Origin: Candidatus Latescibacterota bacterium | GTDB lineage: Bacteria; Latescibacterota; UBA2968; UBA8231 | Assembly: GCA_964291625.2 (NCBI GenBank) | Contig: OZ220089.1 | Span: 2,720,001-2,784,000 of the forward strand | Reading direction: 5' to 3' | Length of the DNA: 64,000 nucleotides | Shown: positions 531-21,433 of the stretch, piece by piece | Numbering within the stretch: position 1 is the first letter of the stretch | Layout: every line of letters begins with the position of its first letter | The notes under the pieces: model-generated | The model's database searches: none | The model's input: only the letters and a program-made list of their open reading frames with translations | What the model was told of the DNA's origin: nothing | Program-made: the position numbers and the translations under genes

Positions 531-568
531 CGGCCGCGACCACGCTATCTTCCACCAGTGGAGCAGCC

Positions 569-3200: not shown

Positions 3201-3289
3201 TTCCACTCGTAGGGCTGCGCCGTCGAGCCTTGCACCGGCGATGAAGGCCGATGGCTTCAGTTGCCGGGGCGAGGTGAAGCTGGCCCCCT

Positions 3290-4060: not shown

Positions 4061-4209
4061 CGTGGCATGCTCCCAAGATACAGATAACTCCAAGTGAGCA
4101 GTAGGTCCTCAGGTTGCCGCGTAGTCGACCCGTCGGCCCGAGGCGTACAGTCCGACGGGCGCGAGCGGTTCGAAGACGCGTTCGCTTCGGGAGTAGGAAT
4201 CGTAGAGTC

Positions 4210-4482
4210 TCAGCTCCAAGGGCAGTCCGCGTCGACCCTGACCAGTGCCCGGATCCCATCCTCGTCGTCGCTGGCCGGGCCTTTCTCCAGCGGCGTCTGT
4301 TCGGGGACCGGCTCCCCGTCCATGAGCAATCCCTCGATGTGACAGGCGACGGCCTCGCGAGCGGATTCGATGGCCTCCTCGAGCGTGTCTCCGGCCGAGA
4401 AGCAACCGGGCAGATCCGGCACGGTGACTCCATACCCGCTCTCCTCGTCCTTGTGAATCACGGCTGCGAAACGCAAACGCAT
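4210..4482 (-). CDS. hicB: HicB-family antitoxin (orphan, no hicA)
   Basis: FAAVIHKDEESGYGVTVPDLPGCFSAGDTLEEAIESAREAV. Confidence 0.85.
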   Translation of the reverse strand: MRLRFAAVIHKDEESGYGVTVPDLPGCFSAGDTLEEAIESAREAVACHIEGLLMDGEPVPEQTPLEKGPASDDEDGIRALVRVDADCPWS

Positions 4483-4589
4483 CAGCGGTCCTCCCCATCC
4501 ATGTTCGTGCTCTTCATCGGTGCGTAACATACGCACCGCTCCCGGCCTCAACGGAGGGCCAGGTGTGGGCCAGTCGGGTATGTCCGCAA

Positions 4590-5001
4590 CGGCCACCAAG
4601 CCAGCGCACCACCGGATCGAGTGGCGCCGGAGTCGCGCCGGCACAGAGCCCCCGGCCGGCGGCACGAGGCCCAGAAAGGTGGCTGCACGGTGATCCCACC
4701 GGCCGCGGCCACGCCTGCTGCGACGTCCCGCGAATGGAAGCCCTGCCAGCGGCGGCGACGGCGGCGCAGGCCGAGCCGAGCGGCGCATTACGCCGGGCGG
4801 ATCCCAAGCTTGCGCGCATCCAGAAGGCCCAGAGACCCGAGCGCAGCGAGGGGCTCGCCGGCCCCACGAATCACTCCGATAGGTCCTCGCCCTGCTTGGG
4901 CACGGGGCGCACTACGACATCTTCTCGGCTTGCGATAGATCCATCAACCAATCCGGGCGTACGCGCCGCCGAGGCGCGGCCGGAGCCGCCGGCGCCGCCC
5001 C
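4590..5001 (+). repeat. Structured intergenic repeat, copy 2
   Basis: GGATCGAGTGGCGCCGGAG, GACGGCGGCGCAGGCCGAGCCGAGCGGCGC, CCCGAGCGCAGCGAGGGG and GGCGTACGCGCCGCCGAGGCGCGGCCGGAGCCGCCGG blocks. Confidence 0.9.
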
Positions 5002-5038
5002 AAGGCAGAGGAGAACCAGAGGGAGAGCACCGTGAACA

Positions 5039-5849
5039 TCAGCTCCCGACCAGATCCAGGTGACGGAGGGTGGATTGGATCGCACCTGCCTCTACGAGCA
5101 CCGGGATCAACTCCGCGTGTCTCGTCCGCTCGGCCGCACCGAACAACAGCCGCGTATAGGGCTTCACCAGCGCGCCTTCGCCGATCAACCACCGCGCGAG
5201 CTGCTCGTGGCCTCCGGCCACGGCAGGCGGCTCACCGCCTGCAGGCTACTGATGACGCGGGCCTCCAGGGCCCGGGTGCAGGGGGGTCACACGCCAGACC
5301 GAGTCGTCTTCCTGTTCCCTGGTCAACAGGTCTGGCTCGGTCTCGAGCCAGTGTTGCACGCGGTCGGTGTCACCCAGGTAGCACGCGGAGTAGATATCCA
5401 GCAGCGGGCTGATGCAATCCTTCCTCAGCTCCCGACCAGCACCTGCCTCTACGAGCACCGGGATCAACTCCGCGTGTCTTCCAACATCTCGGCGAGGTGC
5501 GGTCGGCGATAGCGCCCCGCGATGCAGTAGGGCTTGAGGAGCACCGGGATCTCAGTAGGGCTTGAGGAGCACCGGGATCTGTCCGCCCCGGGACATTGGG
5601 ATCGGCTCCGGCCCGCAGCAGGAACCGCACGACGTCAACCCGATGGCCGCGCGTCGCTTCCCAAAGGAAGGTCCTGTTGTGCCCGCCGCTCTTGGCCAGC
5701 AGCAGCGACGGGTCCTGTCTCAGATGCCGCTTTACCGACTCCAGATCTCCGCGCCGCGCCGTCTGCAGAATCGCGGCGATACCGGTACGCCCACTGTGGC
5801 CCGCACGCGGCTTGACTTCATTGCCCCATCCGTGGTCGTCTCCGCTCAT
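5039..5849 (-). pseudogene. Ankyrin-repeat protein, fragmented/scrambled
   Basis: ARRGDLESVKRHL, RTFLWEATRGHRVDVVRFLLRAGADPN, DIYSACYLGD, VTPLH fragments in several frames with internal duplications. Confidence 0.7.
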
Positions 5850-8182
5850 GGAACCACGCCCGCATCCCCGAGCTCATACCTCCAGCCATTCACGACCAGC
5901 AGCGCCACCCCGTCCGAGCGATGGTTGCCGTACACCACCCCGTCCCGACCGCCCACCAGCACGAGGTCGTCCCCGATACGCGCCACTTCCGTCTCGCCCG
6001 ATCGCTCGGTCTGCACTTCAGCCCGGTGAAGCAGTTCGTGGCCGGGGCACAACACGACCCCCAGATTGCGGCGGCTCACCAGACCGGAGGGGGTGAACCG
6101 CAGGTGGTACTGCTGGTGCCACTGCGAGTCATCCTTGCGGATCCGCATCGGCGGGGGGTCCCATCCCTCGCCCAGGGAGAAGAAGGCGTTGTTGTGGTAC
6201 ATGAAGTGCCCTTCGAGGGAGCTGCCGTCACGCTCCAGCAGGAACGTCCTGGCCTCCTCGTCCACGGCGAAACGGTTCCAGGAGTGGATGTTCCACTGCA
6301 ACGCCGAGTCGAGACCCGGAACCGCGACGAACTCGTCGATCATCACGAAGCAGCTCCGCGCCTTCAGGAAGAGCACGTGCCGCCGGCACCGCCTAGCGCG
6401 GTCGCTGTAGCTTGCGTCGGCGTTGCCCGCAAAGTAGATGAGCCGTTCGTCCTCGAAGGGATTCTCGATCCTGCCCCTGGAGTCGTGAGACCGCATGATC
6501 TGCGAGGCGTCGGAGAGGGTGACGCAGTTGTGGGATTTGGTGTGCCACACCCAATGGGTGTGGTGATCCGAACCGTACCCGGCGTAGTAGCCGCTGGGCA
6601 TGGCCAGCACCTTGCCCCCGGCGTGCAGGATGAAGTCGTTGTTGTTGGCGTGGGAGTGGCTGATGGCGCCGAGAGGTGAAGAGCGGAAGATCATCGCCAC
6701 ATCCCGCGCGGGATCGTCCAGATGAGTCCGGACCGCGGCCCAGCCCGCGGCGGGAAAGAGACGGAACATGGGATGGCCCGATTCCTTCGGCCTGGGTGTC
6801 TCCAACGCGGGAGTCAGAAACAGCTGCGGCAGAACGCCCGGGGTTTGCCGGTTCGGCGGCGTCTGCATGTGCTCCGCCTCGGCGCGAAAAGCCTCGACGT
6901 AAGGCGTGAATTCACCGGTCCCGGTCTCTCGTCCGATCAGGTCCACCAGGTCCGCATTGGACCGCCACGAGCTCGCCCAGCGCTCGGTATGGTCGCCGAA
7001 CCCCATCCACTCCGCGTAGGGCGGCAGACAGTACTGACGCCACCGGGCGTGGTTCTTCCAGAACGGTCTCCTGTAGAGATCGACGCCCGCCCCCCGTTTC
7101 AGGGCGGTGGCGAACATGGTCATGATGGTCACGTAGGCCAGGCCGTAGGAGGGGCCTTCCGCCCACGCACCGTCGTCGCCGGCCCAGATCGGCCAGATAC
7201 CGCACAGCACCGGCCGCAGCCACTCGAGCCACGACTGCGCCTCGGGGATGTGCTCGTGGAAGACCAGCGCGATGTGGGCCAGGAAGACGATCTCGCGGCC
7301 GGCGTGCGAGTCGAAGCGCGTCAGTCCGTAGGATCCCCGGTTGTGCATGTGATCGAACGTCATCCGCCCACGCTGCCGGAACTGGGCGACGACGGCGTCG
7401 CGCTCCTCGTCCGTGAAACGGTCCCACACCCAGTCGCAGGCGTTCGAGCCGTTCCAGATCACCGACATGTGAGCTTCGTCGTTGTGGGCCAGGTGGCTCG
7501 ACCCCTCCGGATCCCAGCGGGAGATGGAGGCCATCCGCCGGCAGGCGGCGCGGGCGAAACGGTCCTCCCCGCCCACCAGCCAGGCCAACGCCAGGGTCTC
7601 GGCGCCCTTGACGAAGCGCCGGGAGTTCCACATCAGCGGACTCCAGGCCTCGAAGAATGCCTGATAGCTCTCCCGGCGGTCGGGGAGATAGGGCGGCTCC
7701 TCGATCTCGTGAGGTTCCGCCAACACGGCCTCGGCGCTTCTCCGCAGGCCTTCCCACGCTGACGCACGCTCGCCAAGAGCCGCCGCACGCAGCGCCGGTA
7801 CCTCCTCGGGGCGGACGTAGATCCGCGGGTGTTGCGCCGGGAAGCGTTTCAGCCACTCCGCAGCCGACGGCACCTCCACAACCACCGCCTCCGCTGCGAT
7901 CTCAAAGGCGAAGACCTCCGACATCGCGCTATCCCCCGCGCACCAGCGCCAGAAGTACCTACCCGGCGCGAAGGCGGTCTCGGGCAGAAACAGCGGGTCC
8001 TGCAGATTCCCCTTCTCCAGGCAGATGCTCTCGAAGCCGGGATCCCGGGCCACCTGCAGCCGATAGCCCGACGCGGACTCCACGGGAAGCCAGGCGAAGA
8101 CAGGCGGATTCGTCCCCGGCCTGGCGTCTGCCCTGGGCTGCCGCGGATCTCTGTGCGGGTGCGGATGGCGGTGTTGCTTCAT
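5846..8182 (-). CDS. DUF4962/heparinase II-III family (polysaccharide lyase-like) protein
   Basis: NPPVFAW N-terminus, HPRIY, DGAWAEGPSY, SHSHANNNDF, HNCVT motifs; 778 aa. Confidence 0.75.
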   Translation of the reverse strand: MKQHRHPHPHRDPRQPRADARPGTNPPVFAWLPVESASGYRLQVARDPGFESICLEKGNLQDPLFLPETAFAPGRYFWRWCAGDSAMSEVFAFEIAAEAVVVEVPSAAEWLKRFPAQHPRIYVRPEEVPALRAAALGERASAWEGLRRSAEAVLAEPHEIEEPPYLPDRRESYQAFFEAWSPLMWNSRRFVKGAETLALAWLVGGEDRFARAACRRMASISRWDPEGSSHLAHNDEAHMSVIWNGSNACDWVWDRFTDEERDAVVAQFRQRGRMTFDHMHNRGSYGLTRFDSHAGREIVFLAHIALVFHEHIPEAQSWLEWLRPVLCGIWPIWAGDDGAWAEGPSYGLAYVTIMTMFATALKRGAGVDLYRRPFWKNHARWRQYCLPPYAEWMGFGDHTERWASSWRSNADLVDLIGRETGTGEFTPYVEAFRAEAEHMQTPPNRQTPGVLPQLFLTPALETPRPKESGHPMFRLFPAAGWAAVRTHLDDPARDVAMIFRSSPLGAISHSHANNNDFILHAGGKVLAMPSGYYAGYGSDHHTHWVWHTKSHNCVTLSDASQIMRSHDSRGRIENPFEDERLIYFAGNADASYSDRARRCRRHVLFLKARSCFVMIDEFVAVPGLDSALQWNIHSWNRFAVDEEARTFLLERDGSSLEGHFMYHNNAFFSLGEGWDPPPMRIRKDDSQWHQQYHLRFTPSGLVSRRNLGVVLCPGHELLHRAEVQTERSGETEVARIGDDLVLVGGRDGVVYGNHRSDGVALLVVNGWRYELGDAGVVP

Positions 8183-8209
8183 GGCGGTACCCTACGGCAA
8201 TCTCGGTGA

Positions 8210-8458
8210 TCCCCGCCAACCCCAGCCCCCCCGGCCGGCGCCCCACCGGATCGAGTGGCGCCGGAGGCACCCCCGGCCCGGAGTCACCACCGAGCGCCAC
8301 CCCGCCCACAGAAAGGTGTGTGGAGTGAGGTCCCACCCGGGGCGGTGACGGCGGCGCAGGCCGGGCCGAGCGGCGCACCTTACGCCGGGCCGGGGTCAAC
8401 AACCACCCGCATCCAGCAGGCCCAGAGGCCCGAGCGCAGCGAGGGGCTCGCCAACCCA
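8210..8458 (+). repeat. Structured intergenic repeat, copy 3 (lacks 3' arm)
   Basis: Very similar to the 5' two-thirds of copy 4; ends just after GCGCAGCGAGGGGCTCGCCAACCC. Confidence 0.9.
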
Positions 8459-8639
8459 CGGACCAGGTTCAGGGGAGATGACCACCGCCAGCCAGCACGA
8501 GGGGTGGCCTGGACCTCAGCGGGAGCCAACCTTCCGGAGTGTCCCTTTGGGAGGAGGGTTGCGCAAGGGTCCCTGGCGACTCTACTCTGGAACCAGGGGG
8601 TGGGCCCGCCTCCCAATCCGCTTTGATCGGAGTTCTATC

Positions 8640-8894
8640 CTGAATCGGCCTAGGGAGCTTCGACAGCAGATTCTCGGTGGTCGCTCGGATGCGAACATCC
8701 GTTTCGACGACTTGCGCTCGCTACTCCGGAGGCTGGGGTTCACCGAGCGGGTGCGAGGAAGTCATCACATATTCCGGAAGGAAGGAATCGCTGAAAGGCT
8801 GAACCTGCAACGTGATGGCAGCCACGCGAAACCCTATCAGGTGCGACAGGTCCGCCGAGTGATACTGAAATACAAACTGGAGGATCCGGACTGA
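8640..8894 (+). CDS. hicA: HicA-family toxin (mRNA interferase)
   Basis: SDANIRFDDL...GFTERVRGSHHIF...AKPYQVRQV; probable CTG start after GGAG; stop overlaps hicB start. Confidence 0.85.
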   Translation: MNRPRELRQQILGGRSDANIRFDDLRSLLRRLGFTERVRGSHHIFRKEGIAERLNLQRDGSHAKPYQVRQVRRVILKYKLEDPD

Positions 8895-9106
8895 TGTACA
8901 GATACGAGATCATCCTTTACTGGAGCGATGCCGACAGCGTTTTCGTGGCTGAAGTGCCGGAGCTATCTGGATGCATGGCTCACGGTGACACACAAGAGGC
9001 CGCTCTCAGGCAGGTCAAGGAAGCCATGGGTCTTTGGATCGATACCGCAAGGGAGTTCGGCGACCCGATTCCGGAACCCAAGGGCGAGCGTCTGATGCTG
9101 GCATAG
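8894..9106 (+). CDS. hicB: HicB-family antitoxin
   Basis: YEIILYWSDADSVFVAEVPELSGCMAHGDTQEAAL...PIPEPKG. Confidence 0.9.
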   Translation: MYRYEIILYWSDADSVFVAEVPELSGCMAHGDTQEAALRQVKEAMGLWIDTAREFGDPIPEPKGERLMLA

Positions 9107-9445
9107 CCAGCCAACCGCAGCCCACCAGGCAAGCGCCCCACCGGATCGGTGGCGCCGGAGTTCACCCCGGGCCCAGAACCCCAGCAGGCGCCACCCCGCC
9201 CACAGAAAGGTGTGTGGGGTCAGGTCCCACCCGGGGCGGTGACGGCGGCGCAGGCCGGGCCGAGCGGCGCCCTTTACGCCGGGCCGGGGTCAACAACCCC
9301 CCACATCCAGCAGGCCCAGAGACCCGAGCGAAGCGAGGGGCTCGCCAACCCCTCGAACCACCTCCCGTCGATAGCCCCACCAACCAGGCCCGGCGTACGC
9401 GCCGCCGAGACACGGCCGGAGCCGCCGGCACCGCCCCTTGCCAGA
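9107..9445 (+). repeat. Structured intergenic repeat, copy 4 (full)
   Basis: Stem 9233-9285 pairs with 9387-9437; mini-hairpin CCCGAGCGAAGCGAGGG at 9323-9339; begins immediately after the hicB stop. Confidence 0.92.
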
Positions 9446-9489
9446 ACCCCCTATCTTGGACCCAATCCAATCCAACCGGAGAACCAGCC

Positions 9490-10371
9490 ATGACCGAACA
9501 CGCCAACACCTCGCGCTCGATCACCGCAGACACGACCGAGATGTCCCCCGACGAGAAGTACCTCTTCGACCTGACCGGCTTCCTGATCGTGCGCGACGTG
9601 CTGAGCGACGAGCACCTGAAGCTGGCCAACGAGGCGATCGACTCGATGGAGCTCAACCCGAGCCCCGAGTACTTCGGCGATTCGGCCGCCCTGAGGGGTG
9701 AGAACCGCTCGACCCGCCTCGGCAACAGCGAGAACCTGATGGAGCTTCCCCATCCCCACTGCGAGCCCTTCCGGGAGATGCTGGCCCATCCGAAGACCAT
9801 CCCCCATCTCAACACCATCCTCGGGGAAGGCTGGCGCCTGGACCACGGCCCCGGCCTGATCGCCATGGACAAGGGATGCTCCGGGGGCATGCTGCACGGC
9901 AACTTCGACAACGCCCCCTACTTCTACCGCGAGGGGAAGATCTTCACGGGCCTCTGCGTCATCGAGTACCTCCTCGCCGACGAAGGCCCCGGCGACGGCG
10001 GCATCAGCGTTGTGGCCGGCAGCCACAAGGCGAATCTCGCCTGCCCGGCGAAGATGCTCCGATGGGAGCAGTACCAGGAGTACGTGACCGAGATCAACGC
10101 CAGGGCCGGCGACGCCGTCATCTTCAGCGAGGCCTGCACCCACGGCACCCTCCCGTGGAACGCCGACCACCAGCGCCGCGCCATCCTCTACAAGTACAAC
10201 ACCGGCCACATGGCCTGGGGCGGAGGCGGACTGCGAGGGGCTCGCCCCTCCTACTGGGACGAGCTCACCCCTGCGCAGCAGGCGGCTCTGCTCCTGCCCT
10301 CCCACCACTCCCGCCGGCCCAAGCAGAGCAACGGGTACGCCGGGCTCGCCGAGGTGGCCGACTCGGCCTGA
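9490..10371 (+). CDS. PhyH-family Fe(II)/2OG enzyme
   Basis: DEKYLFDLTGFLIV, RLDHGPG, VAGSHKAN, GDAVIFSEACTHGTLPW...RR. Confidence 0.85.
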   Translation: MTEHANTSRSITADTTEMSPDEKYLFDLTGFLIVRDVLSDEHLKLANEAIDSMELNPSPEYFGDSAALRGENRSTRLGNSENLMELPHPHCEPFREMLAHPKTIPHLNTILGEGWRLDHGPGLIAMDKGCSGGMLHGNFDNAPYFYREGKIFTGLCVIEYLLADEGPGDGGISVVAGSHKANLACPAKMLRWEQYQEYVTEINARAGDAVIFSEACTHGTLPWNADHQRRAILYKYNTGHMAWGGGGLRGARPSYWDELTPAQQAALLLPSHHSRRPKQSNGYAGLAEVADSA

Positions 10372-10378
10372 GCACGGC

Positions 10379-11491
10379 ATGCACGACGCCATCGTCATCG
10401 GGGGAGGGGTGCTCGGCGCCGCCACCGCCTGGCACCTCGTCCTCGCCCGGGCGCGGGTGCTGCTGCTCGACCGCGGCGACGAGGGACGGGCCACCGCCGC
10501 CGGGGCCGGCATCGTCTCCCCGGCGACCTACCGCGGCGACTCCGACGTCTGGTACCGCTTCAGCCGGGCCTCATACCGTCACCTCTCGACGCTGGTCCCC
10601 CAACTCGAGGCCGAAGGCATCGGCACCGGGTTCGCCCGCTGCGGCCTGCTGCTGGTGGCGGTCTCCGACGACGAGTTCGGACCCTTCGAGGCCGCCTCTC
10701 AGCGGATCCTCTCGCGCCCGGATGAAGGCTCCCCGGTTCGCCCCGTCGACATTGCCGAAGCCCGGGAGATGTTCCCGCCCCTCGCCGAATCCGCCCGGGC
10801 CCTGCACAACCCCGACGCCGCCCGCATCGACGGCCGCCTCCTGGCCCGGGCCCTGCTCGAAGCCGGCGAACGCCGCGGACTCGAGCGCCGGACCGCCTCG
10901 GCCGACAGCCTCATCCTCGACGGGAGCCGCGTCACCGGCGTCCTCAGCGGCGGCGACCGCATATCCGCGGGAGCCGTGGTCATCGCCGGCGGCGCCTGGT
11001 CCCGGCGCTTCTCGGACCAGCTCGGCCTCGACATCCCGGTGGCCCCCCAGCGCGGCCAGATCATCCACCTCGACCTCGGAGGCACCGACACCTCCACCTG
11101 GCCGATCGTCAGCGCCTTCCGCGACCACTACATGGTCCCCTGGCCGGACAGCCGCGTAGCCGCCGGCGCCACCCGCGAGACCGGCTCCGGCTTCGAGCCC
11201 AAGGCGACCGCCGCCGGGACCGTCGAGGTGCTCTCCGAGGCCCTGCGCGTCGCCCCCGGCCTGGCCTGCGCCTCCATCCGCGAGACCCGCGTCGGCCTGC
11301 GCCCCCTGTCGGCCGACGGCCTGCCGGTCATGGGCGCGGTCCCGGGGTGGCAGGGCCTCTACCTGAACACGGGGCACGGGGCCAGCGGTCTGCAACTGGG
11401 GCCCTTCAGCGGGCGGGCTGTCGCCGATGCTGCCCTGGGCTGCGGGCCGGGGTTCGACCTCTCGTCTTTCTCGGTCGAGCGGTTCCTGTGA
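10379..11491 (+). CDS. FAD-dependent oxidoreductase, D-amino acid/glycine oxidase family
   Basis: IVIGGGVLG, ATAAGAG, VIAGGAWS, PQRGQ, GLRP..DGLPVMG, NTGHGASG. Confidence 0.88.
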   Translation: MHDAIVIGGGVLGAATAWHLVLARARVLLLDRGDEGRATAAGAGIVSPATYRGDSDVWYRFSRASYRHLSTLVPQLEAEGIGTGFARCGLLLVAVSDDEFGPFEAASQRILSRPDEGSPVRPVDIAEAREMFPPLAESARALHNPDAARIDGRLLARALLEAGERRGLERRTASADSLILDGSRVTGVLSGGDRISAGAVVIAGGAWSRRFSDQLGLDIPVAPQRGQIIHLDLGGTDTSTWPIVSAFRDHYMVPWPDSRVAAGATRETGSGFEPKATAAGTVEVLSEALRVAPGLACASIRETRVGLRPLSADGLPVMGAVPGWQGLYLNTGHGASGLQLGPFSGRAVADAALGCGPGFDLSSFSVERFL

Positions 11492-11534
11492 CGATGGTCG
11501 ACGGCCCAACCTGCGCCGCGCCGTCAGGTTCACC

Positions 11535-11576
11535 AACTGGCGGATCGTCGACGTGGACCTGATCGACTATCACTAG
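11535..11576 (+). pseudogene. higB: HigB (RelE-like) toxin C-terminal remnant
   Basis: AACTGGCGGATCGTCGACGTGGACCTGATCGACTATCACTAG = [13 protein letters not shown], the HigB C-terminus with an internal deletion, directly upstream of higA. Confidence 0.7.
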
Positions 11577-11593
11577 CGAGAGGCTGGAAACTC

Positions 11594-11830
11594 ATGGCGA
11601 TGAAGAACCCACCACATCCGGGCCGCAGCATCAAGGAGAGCTGTCTGGCCCCCCTCGGCCTGAGCGTCACCGAAGCGGCGAAGGTGTTGGGCATAGCTCG
11701 TCACACGCTCTCCCGCGTCCTGAACGGCCATGCGGCCATCTCGCCGGAGATGGCCATTCGACTGGAGAAGGCGGGCTGGTCCAACGCGGAGTTCTGGCTG
11801 CGGCGACAGATCGCCTACGATCTGGTATAG
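11594..11830 (+). CDS. higA: HigA-family addiction-module antitoxin (probable premature stop; frame continues to 11887)
   Basis: MKNPPHPG...[20 protein letters not shown]...[11 protein letters not shown]...AEFWL.RQ.AYDL; TAG followed by ARRTEGKIQVRPYEPEIA*. Confidence 0.88.
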
Positions 11831-11898
11831 GCCCGCCGGACCGAAGGGAAGATCCAGGTCAGGCCCTACGAGCCGGAGATAGCCTGAGCAACCAAGCC

Positions 11899-12195
11899 AT
11901 GGATCACCCCTCGCCCCGGCCCTCCACCCCATGGCGGGTCCACAGCGTCGAAGCCCTGCCCGGACTTCGGTTGCAGGTCCGCTTCACGGACGGCACATCG
12001 GGTGAGGTGGACATGGGGAGGTTCCTCCAGAGCCCCGCCGTCCGAGGCACCCCCTTCGAGCCGCTCCTCGATGAGAGCCTGTTCAGCCAGGTTCGCGCAG
12101 ACCTCGGAGCCGTCACTTGGCCCACGGGAGCCGATCTCGCTCCCGACGCCATGTACGACGCCGTCCGCGCCTCAGGAGAGTGGATCCTCGAGTAG
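11899..12195 (+). CDS. DUF2442-domain protein (TA-associated; usual DUF4160 partner absent)
   Basis: VEALPGLRLQVRFTDG...F.PL.D..LFSQV...GAVTWPTGADLAPDAMY. Confidence 0.8.
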   Translation: MDHPSPRPSTPWRVHSVEALPGLRLQVRFTDGTSGEVDMGRFLQSPAVRGTPFEPLLDESLFSQVRADLGAVTWPTGADLAPDAMYDAVRASGEWILE

Positions 12196-12202
12196 TCGGG
12201 GA

Positions 12203-12545
12203 CACCCCCCAACCGCAGCCCACCAGGCCGGCGCTCCACCAGAGCAAGTGGCGCCGGACCCACCCCAGGCCCAGAACAACCCCCCAGGCGCCACCCCACC
12301 CCTAAAGGAGTGTGTGGTGGTGGTCCCCCCCAGGGCGGTGACGGCGGCGCAGGCCAAGCCGAGCGGCGCATTACGGCGGGCCGGGGTCAACAACCACCCG
12401 CATCCAGGAGGCCCAGAGACCCGAGCGAAGCGAGGGGCTCGCCAGCCCCACGAATCCACCCCAGGCGATAGCCCCACCAAACAGGCCCGCCGTACGCGCT
12501 GCCGAGGCGCTGGCCGGAGCCGCCGTCACCGCCCCGCGCCAGAAC
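12203..12545 (+). repeat. Structured intergenic repeat, copy 5
   Basis: Full stem with compensatory changes (TACGGCGGGCC/GGCCCGCCGTA, GGCCA/TGGCC); CCCGAGCGAAGCGAGGGG. Confidence 0.92.
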
Positions 12546-12589
12546 CACCCCCCATCACCACAGCTGTCGTCTTCATGGTCGATCTCCCT

Positions 12590-13780: not shown

Positions 13781-14700
13781 GACAGCCTCTGGGCGACCTC
13801 CACCGGGAGGCCGTCTCCCGCGTCGAGGGTGATCGAGCGGATGGGCACCCCAAGGGCGAGATCGCGCTCCCCAGGCGGCGTGCCGTGGGCGATCTCCCCG
13901 GCCAGGGCGTCCACGTCGTCCGTCCAGAGCCCGAAGGAGCCCACGACCCCGCGGCCGAGACCATCGGTGGTCCCGCCGTCCTTCCGCCCCCGCAATTCGA
14001 TGTCGCACATGCCGGCGGCGAAGACGTACCCCTCGTGCGTGCCGCTGTCGGAGTGGTCGATGACGGACAGCCCCAGCTTCTCCCCGTACAGCGCCTTCCC
14101 CCGGCCGATGTCCGGGCACTCCATGGCCATGTGATCGAAACCCTTGAGCAGGCTCCCGGCGGAGAGGCTGGCGATCCGCTGCTTCTCCCGCCGCCTCTCC
14201 TGGTTGTGCAGCCTCGGGTCCACGATCTCGGAGATCTGGATCGGGTAACCGTTCGGATCGACGAACTCCAGCAGGCTCCTCTGCATGTAGGCGTGGTCCA
14301 TCGGCTGCACGATGGGTCCGTCCTTCGTTGCCCGGAACCTGTTGGACGCGAAGAAGCCCTCGAAGTGCGAGAAGGCATGGTGGTTGCCCTCGACGTAGAA
14401 GGACCAGTGTCCGACCGAGCCGTAAGCCTGCCCCGTCCTCTCGCCCTCGGGCGACAGCAGCACGGGGGCGGCCTCGTCCTCCCGCAGAACCAGGAAGGAG
14501 TCGCCCACCTGGAGGACGGCCTCGCGGTCGCCGCTCTCGGCGGCGGCGCCGTCCACCCACTCGCCCTTCTCGTTCTGCACGGCGGTGGTGTTCTGCAGCT
14601 CGGTGAGGCCGAGGCGCCGGCCATAGACCTCCCGGCACTCGTCCCAGAGGCGTGTCCGCATCTCGATGTAGGCGATTCCCGTGATCATGTTCGACAACAC
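13777..14700 (-). CDS. VOC/glyoxalase-family two-domain protein
   Basis: Y...LGL, GHWSFYV, FVDPNGYPIQI, FDHMAMECPD...Y.EKLGL, D.GDGLPVEV; coupled to the downstream enolase gene. Confidence 0.65.
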   Translation of the reverse strand: MLSNMITGIAYIEMRTRLWDECREVYGRRLGLTELQNTTAVQNEKGEWVDGAAAESGDREAVLQVGDSFLVLREDEAAPVLLSPEGERTGQAYGSVGHWSFYVEGNHHAFSHFEGFFASNRFRATKDGPIVQPMDHAYMQRSLLEFVDPNGYPIQISEIVDPRLHNQERRREKQRIASLSAGSLLKGFDHMAMECPDIGRGKALYGEKLGLSVIDHSDSGTHEGYVFAAGMCDIELRGRKDGGTTDGLGRGVVGSFGLWTDDVDALAGEIAHGTPPGERDLALGVPIRSITLDAGDGLPVEVAQRLS

Positions 14701-14782
14701 CTTCCCAGGCCCGTGCCGGAGACGCAGGGGTGAGGGAGGGGGACCGCGTGTGCTACGTCACTGCCGACGGCAGGTTGCATCT

Positions 14783-15091
14783 TCACGGCTCACCTCCAAG
14801 CGCACGCACAACCGCCTCGGGATCGCGGTCGATGACGGTCAGCAGCACCCGGGCGGCCCGGTCAGGCACACGCCGCCCCTGTTCCCACTCCTGCAGGGCC
14901 CGCGCATCCAGGCCGAATCGGTCCGCGAACTTCCGGCGACTCAGCTTCATGCGCTTGCGCAGCGCGACGATATGTTCGGCGGCGGGATCGTCCACGATCC
15001 GGCAGGGCAGTTCCACTTCGCCGCGCACATGGGCAAGCACCTCGCCCAAGGCGGTCTCGACTTCCTGCCCCACCTGAGTCCGTTCCGTCAT
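14783..15091 (-). CDS. XRE-HTH antitoxin (HigA2/YiaG-like)
   Basis: IVALRKRMKLSRRKFADRFGLDARALQEWEQGRRVPDRAARVLL. Confidence 0.85.
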   Translation of the reverse strand: MTERTQVGQEVETALGEVLAHVRGEVELPCRIVDDPAAEHIVALRKRMKLSRRKFADRFGLDARALQEWEQGRRVPDRAARVLLTVIDRDPEAVVRALGGEP

Positions 15092-15094
15092 CTG

Positions 15095-15260
15095 TCAGCC
15101 TTCTCCTCCCCAACGCATCTTGCGAATCCCTCCCGTACCACGGAGCAAAGGCGCCGCGTCGGGATCGGCGACGATGGCGGCCTCCATCTCCCTGCGCTGG
15201 TCCACCCGTGAGGAGCTTGCCGATGGCGCGCTCGTAGGCTCGGGTGATGACCAGTCGCAC
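15095..15260 (-). pseudogene. RelE/HigB2-like toxin remnant (frameshifted, truncated)
   Basis: VRLVITRAYERAIGKLL then, in another frame, EMEAAIVADPDAAPLLRGTGGIRKMRWGGEG* (GTGG.RK.RW motif). Confidence 0.75.
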
Positions 15261-15319
15261 GGTCACTGAAAATGCGGCATTGCCGCAGGTCCGGCAAGGT
15301 GTCCTGGGCAAGGCCTCTC

Positions 15320-15637
15320 TCTCCCGTCCCACCAGGCCCGCGTTCCCCACGGATCGAGTGGTGCCGGAGTCCGGCACCCCCACCAAGCGCCACCCGCCCC
15401 AGAGGGAGTGCGTGTGGGCGGTCCCCACCCAGGGCGGTGGCGGCGGCGCAGGCCGAGCCGAGCGGTGCACTATGCGGGGCCTCGCCACCAACCACCACGC
15501 ATCCAGGAGGCCTAGAGACCCGAGCGTAGCGAGGGCACCCCAACCCTCGAACCACCCCCCGTCGATAGCTCCGCCACCCAGGCAGCGCGTACGCGCTGCC
15601 GCGGCGCGGCCGGAGCCGCCGGCACCGCCCCCTGCCA
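15320..15637 (+). repeat. Structured intergenic repeat, copy 6
   Basis: GGATCGAGTGGTGCCGGAG, GGGCGGTGGCGGCGGCGCAGGCCGAGCCGAGC, CCCGAGCGTAGCGAGGG, GCCGGAGCCGCCGGCACCGCCCC. Confidence 0.9.
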
Positions 15638-16081
15638 GTACCCCCCACCTACCCCTATCTTCCACTCACCCAAACCCATCCATGCCAATCCTTCTGATCC
15701 CCCACCCGGCCAAGCAGATGGCCCCCTCCGATTGCGCAGCGCCATCACCACCCAGGGCCTCCGGGCTGGCCCGCGGGCCAGCCAAACGGCCGCCCATCGG
15801 AGAGTCGTTGGACACATGCCTCGGGGAGAATCCCCATGCCGGTCGGACCCCCTAACGAGGAGACAACCGCAGAACGCTCCTTGATTGGCTCTAGGGTAGC
15901 CCTGCAGGTTTCAACTCCAAACGCACCGCTGATGGGCCCCAGTTTGGAACACAGCAATGAAGCTGGGAGGCCTCAACTTGCATTCAAGTGCCCGTGAATG
16001 CGGTGGTGGCTCCCGCTCCCGAGCATCCTCTCTATGGGGCACGGAATGGTGATAAGGCGCCCCGGGAAAGGCCGACCTCTA

Positions 16082-17860
16082 ATGCGACTATCACGAGTAC
16101 AGATACGGAACTTTCGGAATTTTAACACCCTGGACGTCGAGCTATCAGAGAATGCGGTTGTAGTCGGCGAGAACAAGATCGGCAAGACCAACCTGCTGCA
16201 CGCGATGCGATTGGTGCTTGATCCGACCTTGCCCGACTCAGCACGGCATCTGAAGGACGAAGATTTCTGGGATGGTCTGCCTCGACCCCTTGCGCGCGAA
16301 CACAGGATAACCGTTTCGATTGACCTCACGGACTTCGAAGGCGACGAGGACCAAGTTGCTTTGCTGTGCGAACACCTGGTCGTAGCTGAGCCAATGACGG
16401 CGAGGCTGACATATGTGTTCCAGCCGCTTGAGACATTGGATGGCGAACCGTCCAAGGAGTCTGACTACGAGTTCGTGCTGTACGGGGGCGATCGTCCCCA
16501 GAATCGCGTTGGTTATGAGATTCGTCGACGGCTGCCTTTCGATCTGCTACCCGCGCTTCGCGATGCGGAGGGAGATCTGCGAAATTGGCGACGTTCTCCA
16601 CTCCGCCCACTCCTGGACCTAGTTGCTGGGCGTATCGATCGGGAAGCACTGGTGGCACTAGCGAGGGACATTTCTGCTGCCACAGCAGCTGCCGCTGGCA
16701 ACGAGGAAGTGAAGAGGCTCGTCGATGAGATAAACCGGCGCGTGAGGACCCTAGTGGGTCCGTTTCAGACGGTCGATACGTCGCTTGGATTCTCTCCGAG
16801 CGATCCAGAGCGCCTCTTGCGAGCGATGCGCCTGTTCGTTGACGCGGGGAGGCGCGAAATCGGCACGGCCAGCTTGGGATCCACGAACGTGCTGTACCTT
16901 ACCCTCAAGGCTCTGCAACTAGATGAATCAGTTGCGGAGAGGGAGAGGCATCACACGTTCCTCGCAATTGAGGAGCCAGAGGCGCATCTCCACCCCCACT
17001 TGCAGAGACTCGCTTACCGGGGGCTTCTCCGCCCTCCAGAAGGTCATGGTCACACATCACCCCTAACGGCGGTGCTTACCACGCACTCACCTCACATCGT
17101 GAGTGTTGCCCCTCTCAATTCGCTTGTCCTATTGCGAAAGACGCAAGCCGGGAACAGCAGTGAGGGGGTGTCTACGGCCAAATTGGAGCTTGCCTCGGAA
17201 GTCGTGGCCGATCTTGAGCGATACTTGGACGTTACACGCGGAGAGATGCTCTTCGCCAAGGGCGTACTGCTCGTTGAGGGCGAGGCAGAGCGATTCTTGC
17301 TTCCGGCTCTAGGGAAGTCCAATGGAATCGATTTCGACGAGCTCGGGATCTCGGTTTGCTGCGTAGGGGGTACGAACTTCCGGCCGTACATCGAGTTTCT
17401 GGGTGACCGTGGGCTGGACCTGCCAGTCGCCGTGCTCACAGATGGAGATCCGGCGAAGGACGGTCGGAGACGCGGGGAGGAACGGGTGTTGAGTTTGCTG
17501 CGTGATGCCGTCGCCCCGTCGGACCTTGATGGGAAGACGGACGGGCAGCAGCTTGAAATGGCTAGGGACCGGGGGTTTTTCGTCGGTGATTACACCTGCG
17601 AGGTAGATCTGTTCGGGAGCGGGGCCCACAGGCAAATTGGGAAGACACTAGTTGAGTTGGCTCCAGGGGAGGCCGTTCGGAGTAGAGCGGAAGCCTGGAC
17701 AGCCAGCCCGGAGGACTTGGATCCAGTGCGCTTTCTGGCGGACATCTCATCGATTGGAAAGGGTCGCTTCGCTCAGCGGCTATCGGCGCGCGTCGAAGGT
17801 GGCAGCTGGCCAGCCTACATGAGGGATGGTATCGAGTATGTCCGCACCCGCTGTCGCTAG
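16082..17860 (+). CDS. gajA: OLD-family ATP-dependent nuclease (Gabija GajA-like)
   Basis: NFRNF, Walker A GENKIGKT, Walker B IEEPEAHLHP, TTHS, TOPRIM LVEGEAE and TDGD. Confidence 0.85.
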   Translation: MRLSRVQIRNFRNFNTLDVELSENAVVVGENKIGKTNLLHAMRLVLDPTLPDSARHLKDEDFWDGLPRPLAREHRITVSIDLTDFEGDEDQVALLCEHLVVAEPMTARLTYVFQPLETLDGEPSKESDYEFVLYGGDRPQNRVGYEIRRRLPFDLLPALRDAEGDLRNWRRSPLRPLLDLVAGRIDREALVALARDISAATAAAAGNEEVKRLVDEINRRVRTLVGPFQTVDTSLGFSPSDPERLLRAMRLFVDAGRREIGTASLGSTNVLYLTLKALQLDESVAERERHHTFLAIEEPEAHLHPHLQRLAYRGLLRPPEGHGHTSPLTAVLTTHSPHIVSVAPLNSLVLLRKTQAGNSSEGVSTAKLELASEVVADLERYLDVTRGEMLFAKGVLLVEGEAERFLLPALGKSNGIDFDELGISVCCVGGTNFRPYIEFLGDRGLDLPVAVLTDGDPAKDGRRRGEERVLSLLRDAVAPSDLDGKTDGQQLEMARDRGFFVGDYTCEVDLFGSGAHRQIGKTLVELAPGEAVRSRAEAWTASPEDLDPVRFLADISSIGKGRFAQRLSARVEGGSWPAYMRDGIEYVRTRCR

Positions 17861-19649
17861 ACCATCGCCGGCTTATTGGCAGGCCGTGGAAGAGCTTCAG
17901 GAGAATCCTGGTCAGTGGCAAGCGTACAACTCGGATGGACACTGCGTTGTGCTCGCAGGGCCAGGAAGCGGCAAGACCAGGACACTCACCGTGAAGATTG
18001 CGAAGCTGCTGATTGAGACAATTCACGAACCTCGTGGGTTAGCGTGCATCACCTACAATTCGGAGTGTGCGCGTGAGCTGAAGGCTAGGCTTGAGCGACT
18101 GGGAGTGTATGAGTCCAGAAGTGTCTTCATTGGGACAGTTCACTCATTCTGCTTGAGGCGAGTGGTGATTCCCTTTTCAGCCTTGGCGGGCATCGAGCTG
18201 CCGGAGGACTTCCGTATTGCACTAGAGAGCGAACAAGAGGCCGCGTTTGAGGAGGTCAGGGCTCGGGTCAGCCCCGATGGGCGGTCGCGGGGGCTGCGTA
18301 CGATGGCGGAGAAGTACCGACGTACTCACCTTGATCGGGACGGTGCGGAGTGGCAGGAGGACAAGGAGTTGGCGGCCTTGGTGGCCGGCTACGAGCAGTT
18401 GTTGAGAGCAGGAGGGATGATCGACTTTGACGACATGGTGCTTATCGGGCTGAAGCTGATCGAGAGTCGGAAGTGGGTACGCCGGGCACTTCACGCACAG
18501 TTCCCCGTGGTCGTTGTTGATGAGTACCAGGACTTGGGCTTGGCGCTGCATCGGATTGTGAGCAATCTCTGTTTCCGAGGAGGTTCGCGTCTCTTTGCGG
18601 TTGGGGATCCTGACCAGTCGATCTATGGCTTCGCAGGAGCACGGCCAGAGCTATTTCGCGGCCTAGCGGACTCTCCCGAGGTGGAGGCCGTACAGCTGCC
18701 ATTCAACTACCGAAGTGGGGAGACGATTGTTCAAGCCGCGGAGATCGCGCTTGGGGAGACCCGTGGCTATGAGGCGCGTGGAGCTAACGCGGGATCGGTA
18801 GACTTTCACGAGCGACCGAGGGGTCTTGACGATCAAGCGGAGTATATCTGTGGTGAGATAATCCCGTCTGCAATGGAGAGGGTTGAGGGCCTACAGCTTG
18901 CCGATGTGGCAGTGCTGTATGTCGACAGGAGCGACGGAGACGTGATCGCTGGGAGGGCAAAGCAACACAAGTACGCTACAGTGAGGGTTGACCGGGGTGC
19001 ACCCTACCGCAAGACTCCGCTGATCAGATGGTTAGAGGACTGTTCTGCATGGTGCGCGGGGGGTTGGGCTACTGGGTCCCCGCGGTTAAGCTCTCTCCTT
19101 GGTACTTGCGCCTCCATCCTTGGGATGCATGCTGGGGATCGTGAGTGGCATGAGCACAAGGTGAGGCTCGTGGGAGTGCTGCTTTCCCAACGGCAGCCAG
19201 AGCTGTTACTGCGAGAGTGGCTGACAACGCTCAAGAGGGAAGTCTTAGACCTGTTCTTGGAGAGGGACATGACGTTGAGGGACGAGCGGGAGGCGTTAGG
19301 TGTGGTCACGGAGGCCTGCAAGATCGGCGGAGTGCTTGGAGAGTGGAGTGTCGCCGCTTTCGGTGGGCAGGGCGGTTCCCCTGACCACCTAAACCTCATC
19401 ACCCTGTGGAGTGCAAAGGGGCATGAGTATAGAGTAGTCGTCATGATGGGTATGGAGGAGGGACGGGTTCCTGGGTGGAACGCTAGCGAGTTGGAGAAGC
19501 GGGAGCAGCGGAGGCTGTTCTACGTGGGGCTCACTAGAGCGAAGGAGGAGGTCCACATGACCTACTCTGGCTGGAGGGAGAATCGGTACGGGCGACGGTT
19601 CTTTGATGGACCCTCGAGGTTTCTTGTGGAGGTTCGCGAACGTCTCTAG
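17838..19649 (+). CDS. gajB: UvrD/Rep-like helicase (Gabija GajB-like)
   Basis: AGPGSGKT, DEYQD, VGDPDQSIYGF, NYRS, SAKGHEY, RRLFYVGLTRAK; overlaps the OLD nuclease gene. Confidence 0.85.
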   Translation: MSAPAVARPSPAYWQAVEELQENPGQWQAYNSDGHCVVLAGPGSGKTRTLTVKIAKLLIETIHEPRGLACITYNSECARELKARLERLGVYESRSVFIGTVHSFCLRRVVIPFSALAGIELPEDFRIALESEQEAAFEEVRARVSPDGRSRGLRTMAEKYRRTHLDRDGAEWQEDKELAALVAGYEQLLRAGGMIDFDDMVLIGLKLIESRKWVRRALHAQFPVVVVDEYQDLGLALHRIVSNLCFRGGSRLFAVGDPDQSIYGFAGARPELFRGLADSPEVEAVQLPFNYRSGETIVQAAEIALGETRGYEARGANAGSVDFHERPRGLDDQAEYICGEIIPSAMERVEGLQLADVAVLYVDRSDGDVIAGRAKQHKYATVRVDRGAPYRKTPLIRWLEDCSAWCAGGWATGSPRLSSLLGTCASILGMHAGDREWHEHKVRLVGVLLSQRQPELLLREWLTTLKREVLDLFLERDMTLRDEREALGVVTEACKIGGVLGEWSVAAFGGQGGSPDHLNLITLWSAKGHEYRVVVMMGMEEGRVPGWNASELEKREQRRLFYVGLTRAKEEVHMTYSGWRENRYGRRFFDGPSRFLVEVRERL

Positions 19650-19936
19650 GACGGGGGGTAAGGGGTGTCTATTTACGATGCTTAGGTTTGGAGGGGGTGA
19701 GGAACCCTTCGGGCCTTCATCAGAAGGAGGGAAGAGAGTCCTGATCCATTGCGTTCCTCTCTGCTCGTAGGGGATGCATCTCTTCTGGGGAGGGCGTCTT
19801 GGAGAGCGGCCGCAGTTTAGGGGGAGGCGTGGTGGATGCGGTGGGCGACGAATAATCTTGCTTGCTGCGGGAGACCGCAGGAGGTGGGTGCTTGAGTAGA
19901 ACCGCAAGGCAGACCGTATAGTTTGGAGGCGCTAAA

Positions 19937-20395
19937 GTGAAGACAGTCTTCTTTGTTCTTTCGGTAGTGATGTTTTATCCAGAGGCCAAGTCGGAAGATG
20001 CCGAGGAAGAAGGCCCTGTTCTGACTCTCGATAGGCTGTTGTCCAAGTCTGAACAGGCAGAGATGGGCCTGCACAAGCTGACGGAGGAGGAGAAGGGGCG
20101 GCTTCGTGACTACGTGGTCAGAATGTTCATCGCGGGGGTTGAGGAAGGGAAGAGGCAGGTTGGTAGCGCCCAGTTGTCCCAGGTCATCGAGAGCCAGATC
20201 GACGGTGACTTTGACGGGTGGGAGGGTGAGACGATCGTGAAGTTGATGAATGGTCAGATTTGGCAGCAGTCGGAGTTCTACTACCACTATCACTATGCCT
20301 TTATGCCGGACGTACTGATTTACAATTCGGGTGGGGTGTACAAGATGATTGTGGAAGGTGTTGACAGGGCGATCGGGGTCATTCAATTGAGATAG
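19937..20395 (+). CDS. Hypothetical secreted protein
   Basis: Signal-peptide-like N-terminus, GLHKLTEEE, IESQIDGDFDGWEG.T..KL.NGQIWQQ; GGAGG RBS. Confidence 0.7.
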   Translation: MKTVFFVLSVVMFYPEAKSEDAEEEGPVLTLDRLLSKSEQAEMGLHKLTEEEKGRLRDYVVRMFIAGVEEGKRQVGSAQLSQVIESQIDGDFDGWEGETIVKLMNGQIWQQSEFYYHYHYAFMPDVLIYNSGGVYKMIVEGVDRAIGVIQLR

Positions 20396-20807
20396 GGCGG
20401 GGAGTTTGGACGGGGGTGGCAAGTTCGTTAGGCGTCGCCCAGGGCCTGGAGTGCCAGTCGACCATCGTGGCCATCCGCTGGAAACCGGGACCGATGGCGG
20501 TCAACTGGGGGTCGCCGCCACCGATCAAAGCACCGGAGTTGGTCTCGGCCCCCGCGACACACGGTCCAAAATGAGTGTGTGGTTGAGTGATTCCCCTGCA
20601 GACATCCACATTGCCGCGGTTGCGGCTACTGCCGGCGCCTGCGCCGTCTGGCGCCGAGCTGGCCGCCGATCGCTTCAAGCACGTCAAGTTCAGGGAGTCG
20701 GAGACGTATACGGACCCTGCCAGGCGAGCCCCACGAGGCGTGAGCTATGGCCGTCAGGCAGCCTTGTGAGATCTCTGCGTCTCATCGCACTCTGCCGGAG
20801 CTCACCG

Positions 20808-20993
20808 ATGGAATACCGCGTCTTGATCGAGCAGGATGAAGATGGAGTCTTCGTGGCAGCAGCCCCCTCACTCCCCGGTTGCATCAGCCAGGGTGCCACA
20901 CGTCAGGAGGCGCTGACCGGCATCCGCGAGGCGATGACCCTGTACCTGGAGAGCCTTGCCGCGTATGGTGATCCCATACCGCCTCCGGTCTGA
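20808..20993 (+). CDS. hicB: HicB-family antitoxin (orphan, short; 3' end possibly frameshifted)
   Basis: MEYRVLIEQDEDGVFVAAAPSLPGCISQGATRQEAL...PIPPP. Confidence 0.85.
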   Translation: MEYRVLIEQDEDGVFVAAAPSLPGCISQGATRQEALTGIREAMTLYLESLAAYGDPIPPPV

Positions 20994-21013
20994 AGAGACC
21001 GTCGAGCTCCAGG

Positions 21014-21366
21014 ATCCCCCGCCAACCCCAGCCCCACCAGGCCGGCGCCCCACCAGATCGAGTGGCGCCGGAGTCCCCCCCCGGCCCAGAACCCCTGCCA
21101 GGCGCCACCCGGCCCAGAAACAGTGTGTGTGGGCGGTCCCCGCAGGGCGGTCCCCGCAGGGCGGTGACGGCGGCGCAGGCCGAGCCGAGCGGCGCATTAC
21201 GAGGGGCCGCGCCACCAACCCCCGCATCCAGGAGGCCCAGAGACCCGAGCGCAGCGAGGGGCTCGCCGACCCCTCGAACCACCCCCAGTCGATAGACCCA
21301 CCACCAAAGCCCCGCGTACGCGCCGCCGAGGCGCGGCCGGAGCCGCCGGCACCGCCCCCTCCCAGA
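21014..21366 (+). repeat. Structured intergenic repeat, copy 7
   Basis: All blocks present; internal 14-bp tandem duplication GGGCGGTCCCCGCA at the stem start. Confidence 0.92.
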
Positions 21367-21433
21367 CCACCCCCACCACCCCTATCTTCAATCCAATCCA
21401 ACCCAATCCACTCCCCCAAACCGGACCCCCAGA

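Follow-up and report, generated by a model that had tools for sequence, protein, structure and literature searches.

A long repeat element is present in several co-oriented copies, with toxin-antitoxin (TA) and defence genes beside it, in a 64,000-nt stretch of the genome of a Candidatus Latescibacterota bacterium (assembly GCA_964291625.2, contig OZ220089.1, positions 2,720,001 to 2,784,000 of the forward strand), referred to below as the window. The source genome (G000) has a size of 5.9 Mb and a G+C content of 69.5% and is 95% complete; coordinates are those of the window unless marked C1. Repeat scanning and alignment identified seven co-oriented copies of 290-500 bp (c1-c7) within the first 21.4 kb. 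When an nhmmer profile built from these copies was searched against the 5.9-Mb genome, 12 copies and one fragment were detected, all on the plus strand and all within a single 65-kb stretch (C1:2675793-2741407), with five copies (u1-u5) located just upstream of the window. The copies in the window and the TA and defence genes among them are listed in Table 1.

Table 1. Repeat copies, TA genes, and defence genes in the first part of the window
Feature	Position	Strand	Remarks
Repeat c1	242-585	+	Core 352-526, internal deletion; nhmmer; 42 nt before PhyH-like gene 569-1447
Solo HicB-like antitoxin	4210-4482	-	Pfam PF15919, E 2.8e-25; G007 ortholog with 76% DNA identity
Repeat c2	4544-5040	+	Core 4751-5000 with internal insertions
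Repeat c3	8173-8530	+	Core decayed in its right half; its left half and module 1 intact
hicA-hicB pair	8640-9106	+	Pfam HicA, E 1.4e-6; HicB, E 1.1e-9
Repeat c4	9066-9507	+	Core 9234-9436; 53 nt before PhyH gene 9490-10371 (Pfam PhyH)
higB' remnant, XRE/HigA-like gene, DUF2442 gene	11347-12195	+	higB' ends at 11562, by eye
XRE/HTH_3 gene	11594-11830	+	Pfam, E 3.3e-9
DUF2442 gene	11899-12195	+	Pfam, E 4.9e-12
Repeat c5	12176-12604	+	Core 12333-12534; right side abuts 3' end of minus-strand MR_MLE gene
MqsA-like/XRE antitoxin	14783-15091	-	Pfam, E 4.8e-7
relE', truncated RelE/HigB-like remnant	~15095-15260	-	By eye
Repeat c6	15291-15695	+	Core 15432-15630; then ~85 nt with homology to the ilvD leader that follows c7; c6 and c7 are sister copies
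Gabija GajA	15998-17860	+	PADLOC, E 2.7e-216; Pfam AAA_15 and OLD-like TOPRIM
Gabija GajB	17826-19649	+	PADLOC, E 3.1e-219; Pfam UvrD
Solo HicB-like antitoxin	20808-20993	+	Pfam, E 2.4e-9
Repeat c7	20979-21407	+	Core 21159-21357; 76 nt before ILVD/EDD-family dehydratase 21434-23308

A first-pass annotation of this DNA had claimed that every TA locus in the first 21 kb abuts the left end of a repeat copy, and the Pfam matches and coordinates bore this out: all five loci lie 0-110 bp to the left of a copy. The hicB stop codon of the hicAB pair overlaps the left end of c4, the DUF2442 stop is 0-18 nt before c5, and the stop of the HicB gene at 20808-20993 is ~15-20 nt before c7, while on the minus strand the HicB gene at 4210-4482 starts ~60-110 nt to the left of c2 and relE' ~40-70 nt to the left of c6. 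As the annotation also stated, c1 and c3 have no TA gene on their left, where core genes (a 465-aa gene and a heparinase-like gene, respectively) are located. Its TA assignments stood for the antitoxins, DUF2442, and hicAB, which were recovered in a Pfam scan of 30 window ORFs, but not in the same measure for the toxins higB' and relE', which had no Pfam match and which we take, by eye, to be truncated toxin remnants. Only the hicAB pair contains both toxin and antitoxin domains, in the adjacent arrangement of a type II HicAB system; the other two HicB loci contain HicB only, and relics, either antitoxins without a partner or toxins in truncated form, make up four of the five TA loci. The three HicB proteins share only 34-45% pairwise identity, which rules out a recent co-duplication of HicB with the repeat.

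Defence genes accompany the TA loci. The Gabija system between c6 and c7 is represented by both of its genes, GajA followed by GajB, with a low G+C content (0.55-0.60), lies ~300 nt to the right of c6, and forms part of a 5-kb island (15780-20747). In the part of the array outside the window, there are AbiEi/AbiEii genes, an ATPase pair, a DUF4143-fragment/PIN/Phd group, and a GNAT gene abutting u5. The ATPase pair (C1:2679290-2682000, window -40710 to -38000), which is absent from the related genomes G006 and G007, is located one gene to the right of u2, has a low G+C content, and consists of a 537-aa ATPase-like protein and a 366-aa ORF without a Pfam or PADLOC match; read by eye, it may be an unclassified defence pair. 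To the left of the solo HicB gene before c2, a short ORF (3257-3412, minus strand), presumably a fragment of a DDE (IS630-like) transposase, lies within a 1.1-kb segment (3146-4230) that G006 and G007 lack. At the far end of the window, distant from any repeat, a PIN-domain match (63653-64000, E 2.4e-16) runs off the end.

To place the five loci in the context of the genome, TA genes of five families were collected genome-wide (five HicB hits, three HicA, one ParE/RelE, 14 PIN, and two DUF2442; 25 hits in 24 loci). Four of the 24 loci lie within 150 bp of a repeat left end, against an expectation of 0.007 (Poisson P ~1e-10), so the enrichment predicted by the first-pass annotation is present; the MqsA-like locus, whose family was outside this search, is a fifth at a repeat left end. 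No repeat is located near the remaining 20 loci, among them all 14 PIN hits, and therefore the repeat is not a general TA anchor. By our own estimates of the spacer count and the list of modules, no more than about 12 of about 55 spacers in the G000 array contain a repeat, yet six of its 10 accessory modules directly adjoin a left end; Gabija is situated on the right-hand side of a repeat, and the remaining three modules are separated from one by a single gene. The association of small accessory modules with the repeat left end is non-random. The predicted side-specificity fared less clearly: the association with the left end itself was confirmed, but the independent cargo events counted in four genomes were 8 on the left and 2 on the right of a repeat (one-sided P 0.055), which is a marginal difference.

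These numbers also bear on the reading that there is no functional link at all, in which the 65-kb island is simply a variable region that receives accessory genes in any spacer, repeats occur in about a fifth of the spacers, and old inherited insertions mimic a rule. Such a reading would account for the 20 TA loci far from any repeat, the three array modules without repeat contact, and the marginal side bias, and most of the junctions are, as described below, common by descent. It does not readily account for six of 10 modules, with Gabija as a seventh near c6, being at repeats that so few spacers hold, for the lineage-specific defence systems of three species beside the same repeat, or for the repeat duplications that accompany cargo. 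We consider it rather unlikely.

The element consists of two parts, an optional 5' module of ~140 nt (module 1) and a core of ~200 nt. Module 1, which is missing from some copies, contains three GGCGCC(AC) motifs and a CCGGCGCC..GTGGCGCCGG hairpin. In the core, the arms GGGCGGTGaCGGCGGCGCAGGCC and GGCCGGAGCCGCCGGCaCCGCCC pair with each other, and the repeat has terminal inverted arms of ~22 nt. RNAalifold analysis of 26 copies from three genomes yielded a long imperfect hairpin of ~45 bp on the plus strand, enclosing an invariant apical stem-loop (CCCAGAGACCCGAGCGCAGCGAGGGGCTCGCC). Of 1178 cells of the core pairing, not all of them independent, 97.8% were paired, and slid controls dropped to 28-55%. 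Compensatory changes occurred in 7 of 46 core pairs, and the observed values were reached in none of 500 shuffles. The mismatches in the core comprised 21 G-U, which form wobble pairs on the plus strand, and 6 A-C, which would do so on the minus strand, and this excess of G-U indicates that folding of the plus strand is favoured.

Several identities of the element were considered and rejected. A search of Rfam 15 gave no match at the gathering score over the whole window and none at E<=1 over positions 8100-12700, ruling out a riboswitch or another known RNA. The repeat is not a gene, because indels cause the reading frames to differ between copies. Neither a tRNA nor a tmRNA gene is present in the window, so neither served there as the target of a tandem island integration. 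Furthermore, no publication describing the element was found with the terms searched. The repeat is an undescribed structured intergenic element, the core of which is well supported as new by its covariation, its presence in two genera, and the absence of an Rfam match. As a separate observation, the successive copies c4, c5, and c6 (at 9293, 12390, and 15487) follow one another at start-to-start intervals of 3097 and 3097-3099 bp, with unrelated intervening DNA; this equal spacing is not kept in G006 or G007, is unexplained, and is probably a coincidence.

In a DNA search of 41 genomes, clear matches were confined to congeners (seven of nine), at one locus per genome. Within this clade, the element has been amplified, and 12-18 co-oriented copies per genome are located inside one island of 60-77 kb; for example, the copies of G007 (C1:3896388-3956938) are all on the plus strand and those of G006 (C6:1587098-1664244) all on the minus strand. 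Among the species genomes scanned, the apical motif was detected in five assemblies only, labelled Gemmatimonadaceae or Ca. Latescibacterota, and a metagenome scan for the core motif returned a single contig, which the genome scan had already turned up. With a covariance model of the core, matches were obtained in 11 of 76 family genomes, with all nine congeners and one of the two genomes of one other genus among those hit. In most lineages, the repeat is single and occupies an intergenic spot that is presumably transcribed. The apical motif and the GGCGCAUUACGCC and GGCGUACGCGCC segments are retained in the distant copies, whose outer stem shows full compensation.

The surroundings of 10 distant copies were named by eye, without Pfam. 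Five copies lie before or between co-directional genes (PhyH-like, ilvD, and amidohydrolase-like genes; rny and a ymdB-like gene; sufB and sufC), four are situated where the 3' ends of two genes converge (between rpsU and the opposing rnd in two species, and two in G091), and one is at a contig end; no TA gene was recognised among the ORFs neighbouring these 10 copies. The divergent core copies L053, L058, L055, and L060 (genomes G003 and G009) are those at the rny/ymdB-like, sufB/sufC, and rpsU/rnd positions. In the second genus (G091; L052, L056, and L057), one core copy directly precedes a PhyH-like gene, and one divergent core copy adjoins what appears by eye to be a fragment of an IS91-like transposase.

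The history of the array was examined by comparing G000 with G002, G006, and G007, a small and related set of sister species. The island is largely syntenic across them, with 85-95% identity. In a tree of the repeat copies, clusters followed orthologous position (the u2, u3, u4, u5, c1, and c7 groups) rather than genome, indicating that the copies predate the species splits and that there has been little concerted evolution. The hicAB-c4 junction was found in four genomes (G000, G002, G006, and G007), the DUF2442-c5 junction in three with a remnant in G007, and the HicB-c7 junction in three (G000, G002, and G006; HicB was not found in G007), and a decayed junction of c3 with hicA is common to G000 and G006. 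These junctions, being common to two to four species, are therefore inherited rather than recently captured.

Against this inherited background, empty, filled, and swapped sites occur in the sister species, as the first-pass annotation had anticipated. The relE'/MqsA-like segment (14690-15327) is absent from G006 and G007, and G002 has the MqsA-like antitoxin; the segment 11498-12086 is absent from G007, and the DAO-XRE segment lies elsewhere in G006. The Gabija island is absent from G006, G007, and G002, and the spacer that separates the glyoxalase-like gene from ilvD is occupied by Gabija in G000, by a PARIS-like AriA/AriB system in G006, and, in G007, by an NsnB-like ATPase together with a PIN-like gene. 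The GNAT gene is absent from G007, lies to the left of a repeat in G000, and is situated between two sister repeats in G006 (69143/70077). This last case is one of three in which cargo is bracketed by sister repeats, the others being c3/c4 and c6/c7. G002 keeps an internally deleted copy of the c6/c7 duplicate of repeat and ilvD leader, which, together with the ilvD leader after c6, indicates that an arrangement of HicB between two units of repeat and leader was ancestral and that Gabija was inserted into it. Similarly, a unit composed of a repeat and a 501-aa gene is flanked by a repeat on either side in G000; in G007 it occupies a different place and a single repeat is left at the old site, and G006 has extra repeat-bounded segments, with two repeats in tandem, at the place of this unit. 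The relatives also carry inserts of 2.9-4.3 kb to the right of the c5 ortholog. The 4.3-kb insert of G007 contains a Mutator-family (IS256-like) transposase (L019:8959-10230, E 1.8e-35) beside a truncated GH2-like gene.

This comparison allows the causality to be considered in reverse, namely that the repeat is, or was, a mobile element resembling a miniature inverted-repeat transposable element (MITE) or a repetitive extragenic palindrome (REP), which inserts after stop codons or by hairpins and landed beside pre-existing TA genes in the same way as beside rpsU, sufB, and ilvD. The terminal inverted arms are suggestive of such an origin, as are the location of the left end 0-50 nt beyond the stop codon of a co-directional gene at u2, u5, c4, c5, c7, and G006 102541, the dispersal of the copies in distant genomes over different contigs, and an extra copy after ilvD that is found in G006 only. 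However, when this G006-only copy was compared with the empty G000 site, the one filled and empty pair available, no target-site duplication was observed, and the genome contains no parent element, longer relative, or matching transposase. The positions are stable across species, and at the sites with lineage-specific cargo (Gabija, AriAB, NsnB-like, and possibly GNAT), the repeat is present with each, so that it came first there. An origin of the pattern by insertion of the repeat beside older TA genes is therefore quite unlikely in our estimation.

The first-pass annotation had instead proposed that the left end is a capture or insertion point for small TA modules. Cargo turnover and the brackets of sister repeats agree with this proposal, whereas the lack of a linked recombinase, the age and orthologous positions of the copies, the inherited junctions, the relic state of the TA genes, and the ordinary, presumably transcribed intergenic settings of the repeat in distant relatives do not; the side bias also has a simpler explanation in the spacing to the downstream start codons, given below. 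The interpretation of the TA-repeat pattern as a capture system is only partly supported. In its strongest form, the repeats would be true recombination sites of a cassette platform, and a recombinase encoded elsewhere (XerC/D-like, a third conserved tyrosine recombinase, or another) would act on the folded hairpin and move units of cargo and repeat, in the manner of integrons or of the dif modules of Acinetobacter. In favour of this, all copies share one orientation, form a hairpin, and occupy a single locus; independent cargo junctions fall 0-20 nt from the left terminus; there are repeat-cargo-repeat units with sister flanks; G006 has the tandem repeats and extra repeat-bounded segments between the same core genes; and defence cargo has been swapped at one site. 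On the other hand, a six-frame search of G000 with PF00589 gave four tyrosine recombinase hits (C1:77419, 206329, and 4123454; C2:591088), all distant and none within 2.67-2.75 Mb, and no such gene was found in or near the array of G006 or G007. No resolvase (serine recombinase) was found in the G000 genome, and PF01797 gave no Y1 (RAYT) transposase hit in this 95% complete assembly. The attC core motif GTTRRRY was present in none of the 12 copies, and RYYYAAC was present in four, at non-homologous places.

The likeness to integron attC sites noted in the annotation thus failed on both the integrase and the attC tests, and an integron was rejected. The segments between repeats measure 0.9-24 kb and contain several genes on both strands, unlike integron cassettes; they are largely conserved catabolic operons in both orientations, mostly syntenic, and the clustering of copies by position and the decayed, inherited TA cargo also speak against mobile units. 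We therefore regard a cassette platform with a distant recombinase as improbable. A version without an integrase, in which folded repeats are joined by a recombinase elsewhere or by host replication and repair, TA or anti-phage cargo is captured together with a repeat at the repeat 5' terminus, and the units are shuffled among sponge symbionts, would have a similarly slim chance of being correct.

The genes that surround the repeats point to a metabolic region. The island encodes at least eight PhyH-family proteins, a sulfatase, a heparinase II/III-like protein, two MR_MLE proteins, an ILVD/EDD dehydratase, and a DAO protein, together with a xylose-isomerase-like TIM barrel, a PEP-mutase-like protein, an epimerase, an MFS transporter, and a GHL10 protein, and it is a region of polysaccharide and sugar-acid catabolism. 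The gene following c1 was assigned as PhyH-like by blastp to PhyH2 (E 2e-14). Duplicated PhyH genes abound in and around the island; for example, paralogs 30 kb apart (9760-10239 and 40306-40800) share 74-75% DNA identity, and an inverted pair (24062-24700 and 40105-40761) shares 75-80%. Two further genes have internal repetition: 41216-42351 (minus strand) contains five units of ~74 nt, and 50120-52274 (plus strand) contains DxDxDG-like units, which resemble FG-GAP/VCBS repeats.

The position of the repeat relative to these genes suggests a role at the RNA level. Eight of the 12 copies are followed by a plus-strand gene, and the distance from the right end of the core to the downstream start codon is 19 nt at u5, 29 at u4, 42 at c1, 53 at c4, 76 at c7, and 116 at u1. 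The gaps at u4 and u5 are too short to accommodate a promoter before the start codon, and therefore the hairpin must lie in the leader. The repeat is probably an RNA-level regulator, insulator, or terminator. On these grounds, the reading that we favour, and to which we give an even chance, is that of a structured repeat array that is transcribed and doubles as a safe harbour and recombination hotspot for TA and defence cargo. The repeat would be transcribed with plus-strand genes, as a 5' leader or a 3' end, and would mark operon boundaries, and the island would act as an insertion hotspot for TA modules and defence systems. Cargo may persist on the left, since the 3' side of the repeat would be tied to the ribosome-binding site downstream and an insert on the right would be harmful; such an insertion would uncouple the downstream gene from a leader whose repeat ends 19-116 nt away, which could explain the left-side bias. 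The right neighbour of c5 is the 3' end of a minus-strand gene, and the presence of right-hand inserts at this very site in the relatives fits such a selection filter. Recombination between co-oriented copies could duplicate, excise, and re-insert segments, leaving cargo between sister copies. We infer the transcription of the repeat, its insulating effect, and repeat-repeat recombination from these arrangements.

Several points weigh against this reading of a transcribed safe-harbour array. Four copies (u2, u3, c2, and c5) are not followed by a plus-strand gene, and therefore a pure 5'-leader role fails for them. A scan of positions 4000-22000 for promoters and terminators yielded one promoter-like and four terminator-like sites, fewer than in shuffles, with none in a repeat core. 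The AbiE genes, the ATPase pair, and the PIN/Phd group are each one gene away from a repeat and do not contact it. The left bias rests on about 10 events, whose classing as independent is a matter of judgement, and genes were called with our own GC3 filter, from which selected ORFs were passed to Pfam and PADLOC. Repeat recombination is read from end states, and a double crossover in the flanking core genes could also swap cargo. The contigs of the sole RNA run show no transcript starts, ends, or strand.

The window was contained in 24 sequencing runs, mostly sponge metagenomes, four of which were examined as contigs. Repeat-to-repeat joints were seen in contigs (e.g., 4872>9378 and 8200>21149), but these have short sides and may represent assembly paths through repeats. 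The Gabija island was fully covered in only one of the four runs (X1, which may be the source sample), although uncovered parts are no proof of absence. The turning point of the cumulative GC skew is at about 2.9 Mb, some 0.2 Mb away from the array; the signal is weak, and no conclusion was drawn from it.

The array is a tractable natural case of how defence and TA genes settle, whether by safe-harbour selection or by recombination at structured repeats. The placement of the repeat just before the ribosome-binding site in several copies suggests an unstudied regulatory layer of polysaccharide and sugar-acid catabolism in sponge-associated bacteria labelled as Gemmatimonadaceae. If the repeats are recombination sites, they would constitute a new cassette system and a third site-anchored array of accessory genes beside integrons and dif modules; if they are not, the locus is a warning that patterns of TA genes next to repeats can arise from constraint and shared descent.

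Among known systems, integrons and clusters of attC sites lacking integrases (CALINs) resemble the array in having co-oriented hairpin repeats in one chromosomal region, small TA genes that end at a repeat, and defence cargo. Integron cassettes hold one or, rarely, two promoterless ORFs, co-oriented and each ending in a site, attC sites are 50-150 nt long, and an integrase is not required for a CALIN. In contrast, the array described here has no intI, a core of ~200 nt within a full repeat of up to ~350 nt, and no GTTRRRY/RYYYAAC boxes, and its segments of 1-24 kb are multi-gene, in both orientations, mostly conserved catabolic operons, and at orthologous positions. Sedentary chromosomal integrons are reported to carry TA and defence cassettes (bioRxiv 10.1101/2024.07.02.601686; PMC8618304). 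The dif modules of Acinetobacter are likewise modules, many of them TA, bounded by repeated sites, but the repeats studied here are 200-350 nt long, all direct, and chromosomal, and no Xer-type site was recognised in them, although no search aimed at one was made. The pdif sites are 28 bp long, alternate in orientation, and are located on plasmids. The pdif-flanked modules are reported to include many TA pairs, and the recombinase, XerC/D, is encoded elsewhere (PMC6449649; PMC13141974).

REP elements and their mosaic arrangements (BIMEs), ERIC/IRU sequences, and Correia-type elements are also imperfect palindromes of transcribed intergenic regions, where they occur in leaders, between the genes of an operon, and at 3' ends. 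These families have tens to hundreds of copies scattered in either orientation, and REPs go with RAYT transposases. The present element is longer, has an invariant apical motif, and occupies one 65-kb locus in one orientation, and neither the dispersal nor the transposase typical of REPs was found in G000. REPs are known targets of insertion sequences (PMC1525189). Finally, the array shares with defence islands and hotspots the occurrence of different defence systems in the same spacer of sister species, with TA genes alongside. Known defence hotspots are delimited by flanking core genes or by tRNA/integrase sites and are not known to be marked by a family of structured repeats; here, unlike in those hotspots, duplicated copies of such a repeat enclose the cargo in several cases. 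The arrangement is a variant of known themes, in which structured intergenic repeats are combined with a hotspot for defence and TA genes.

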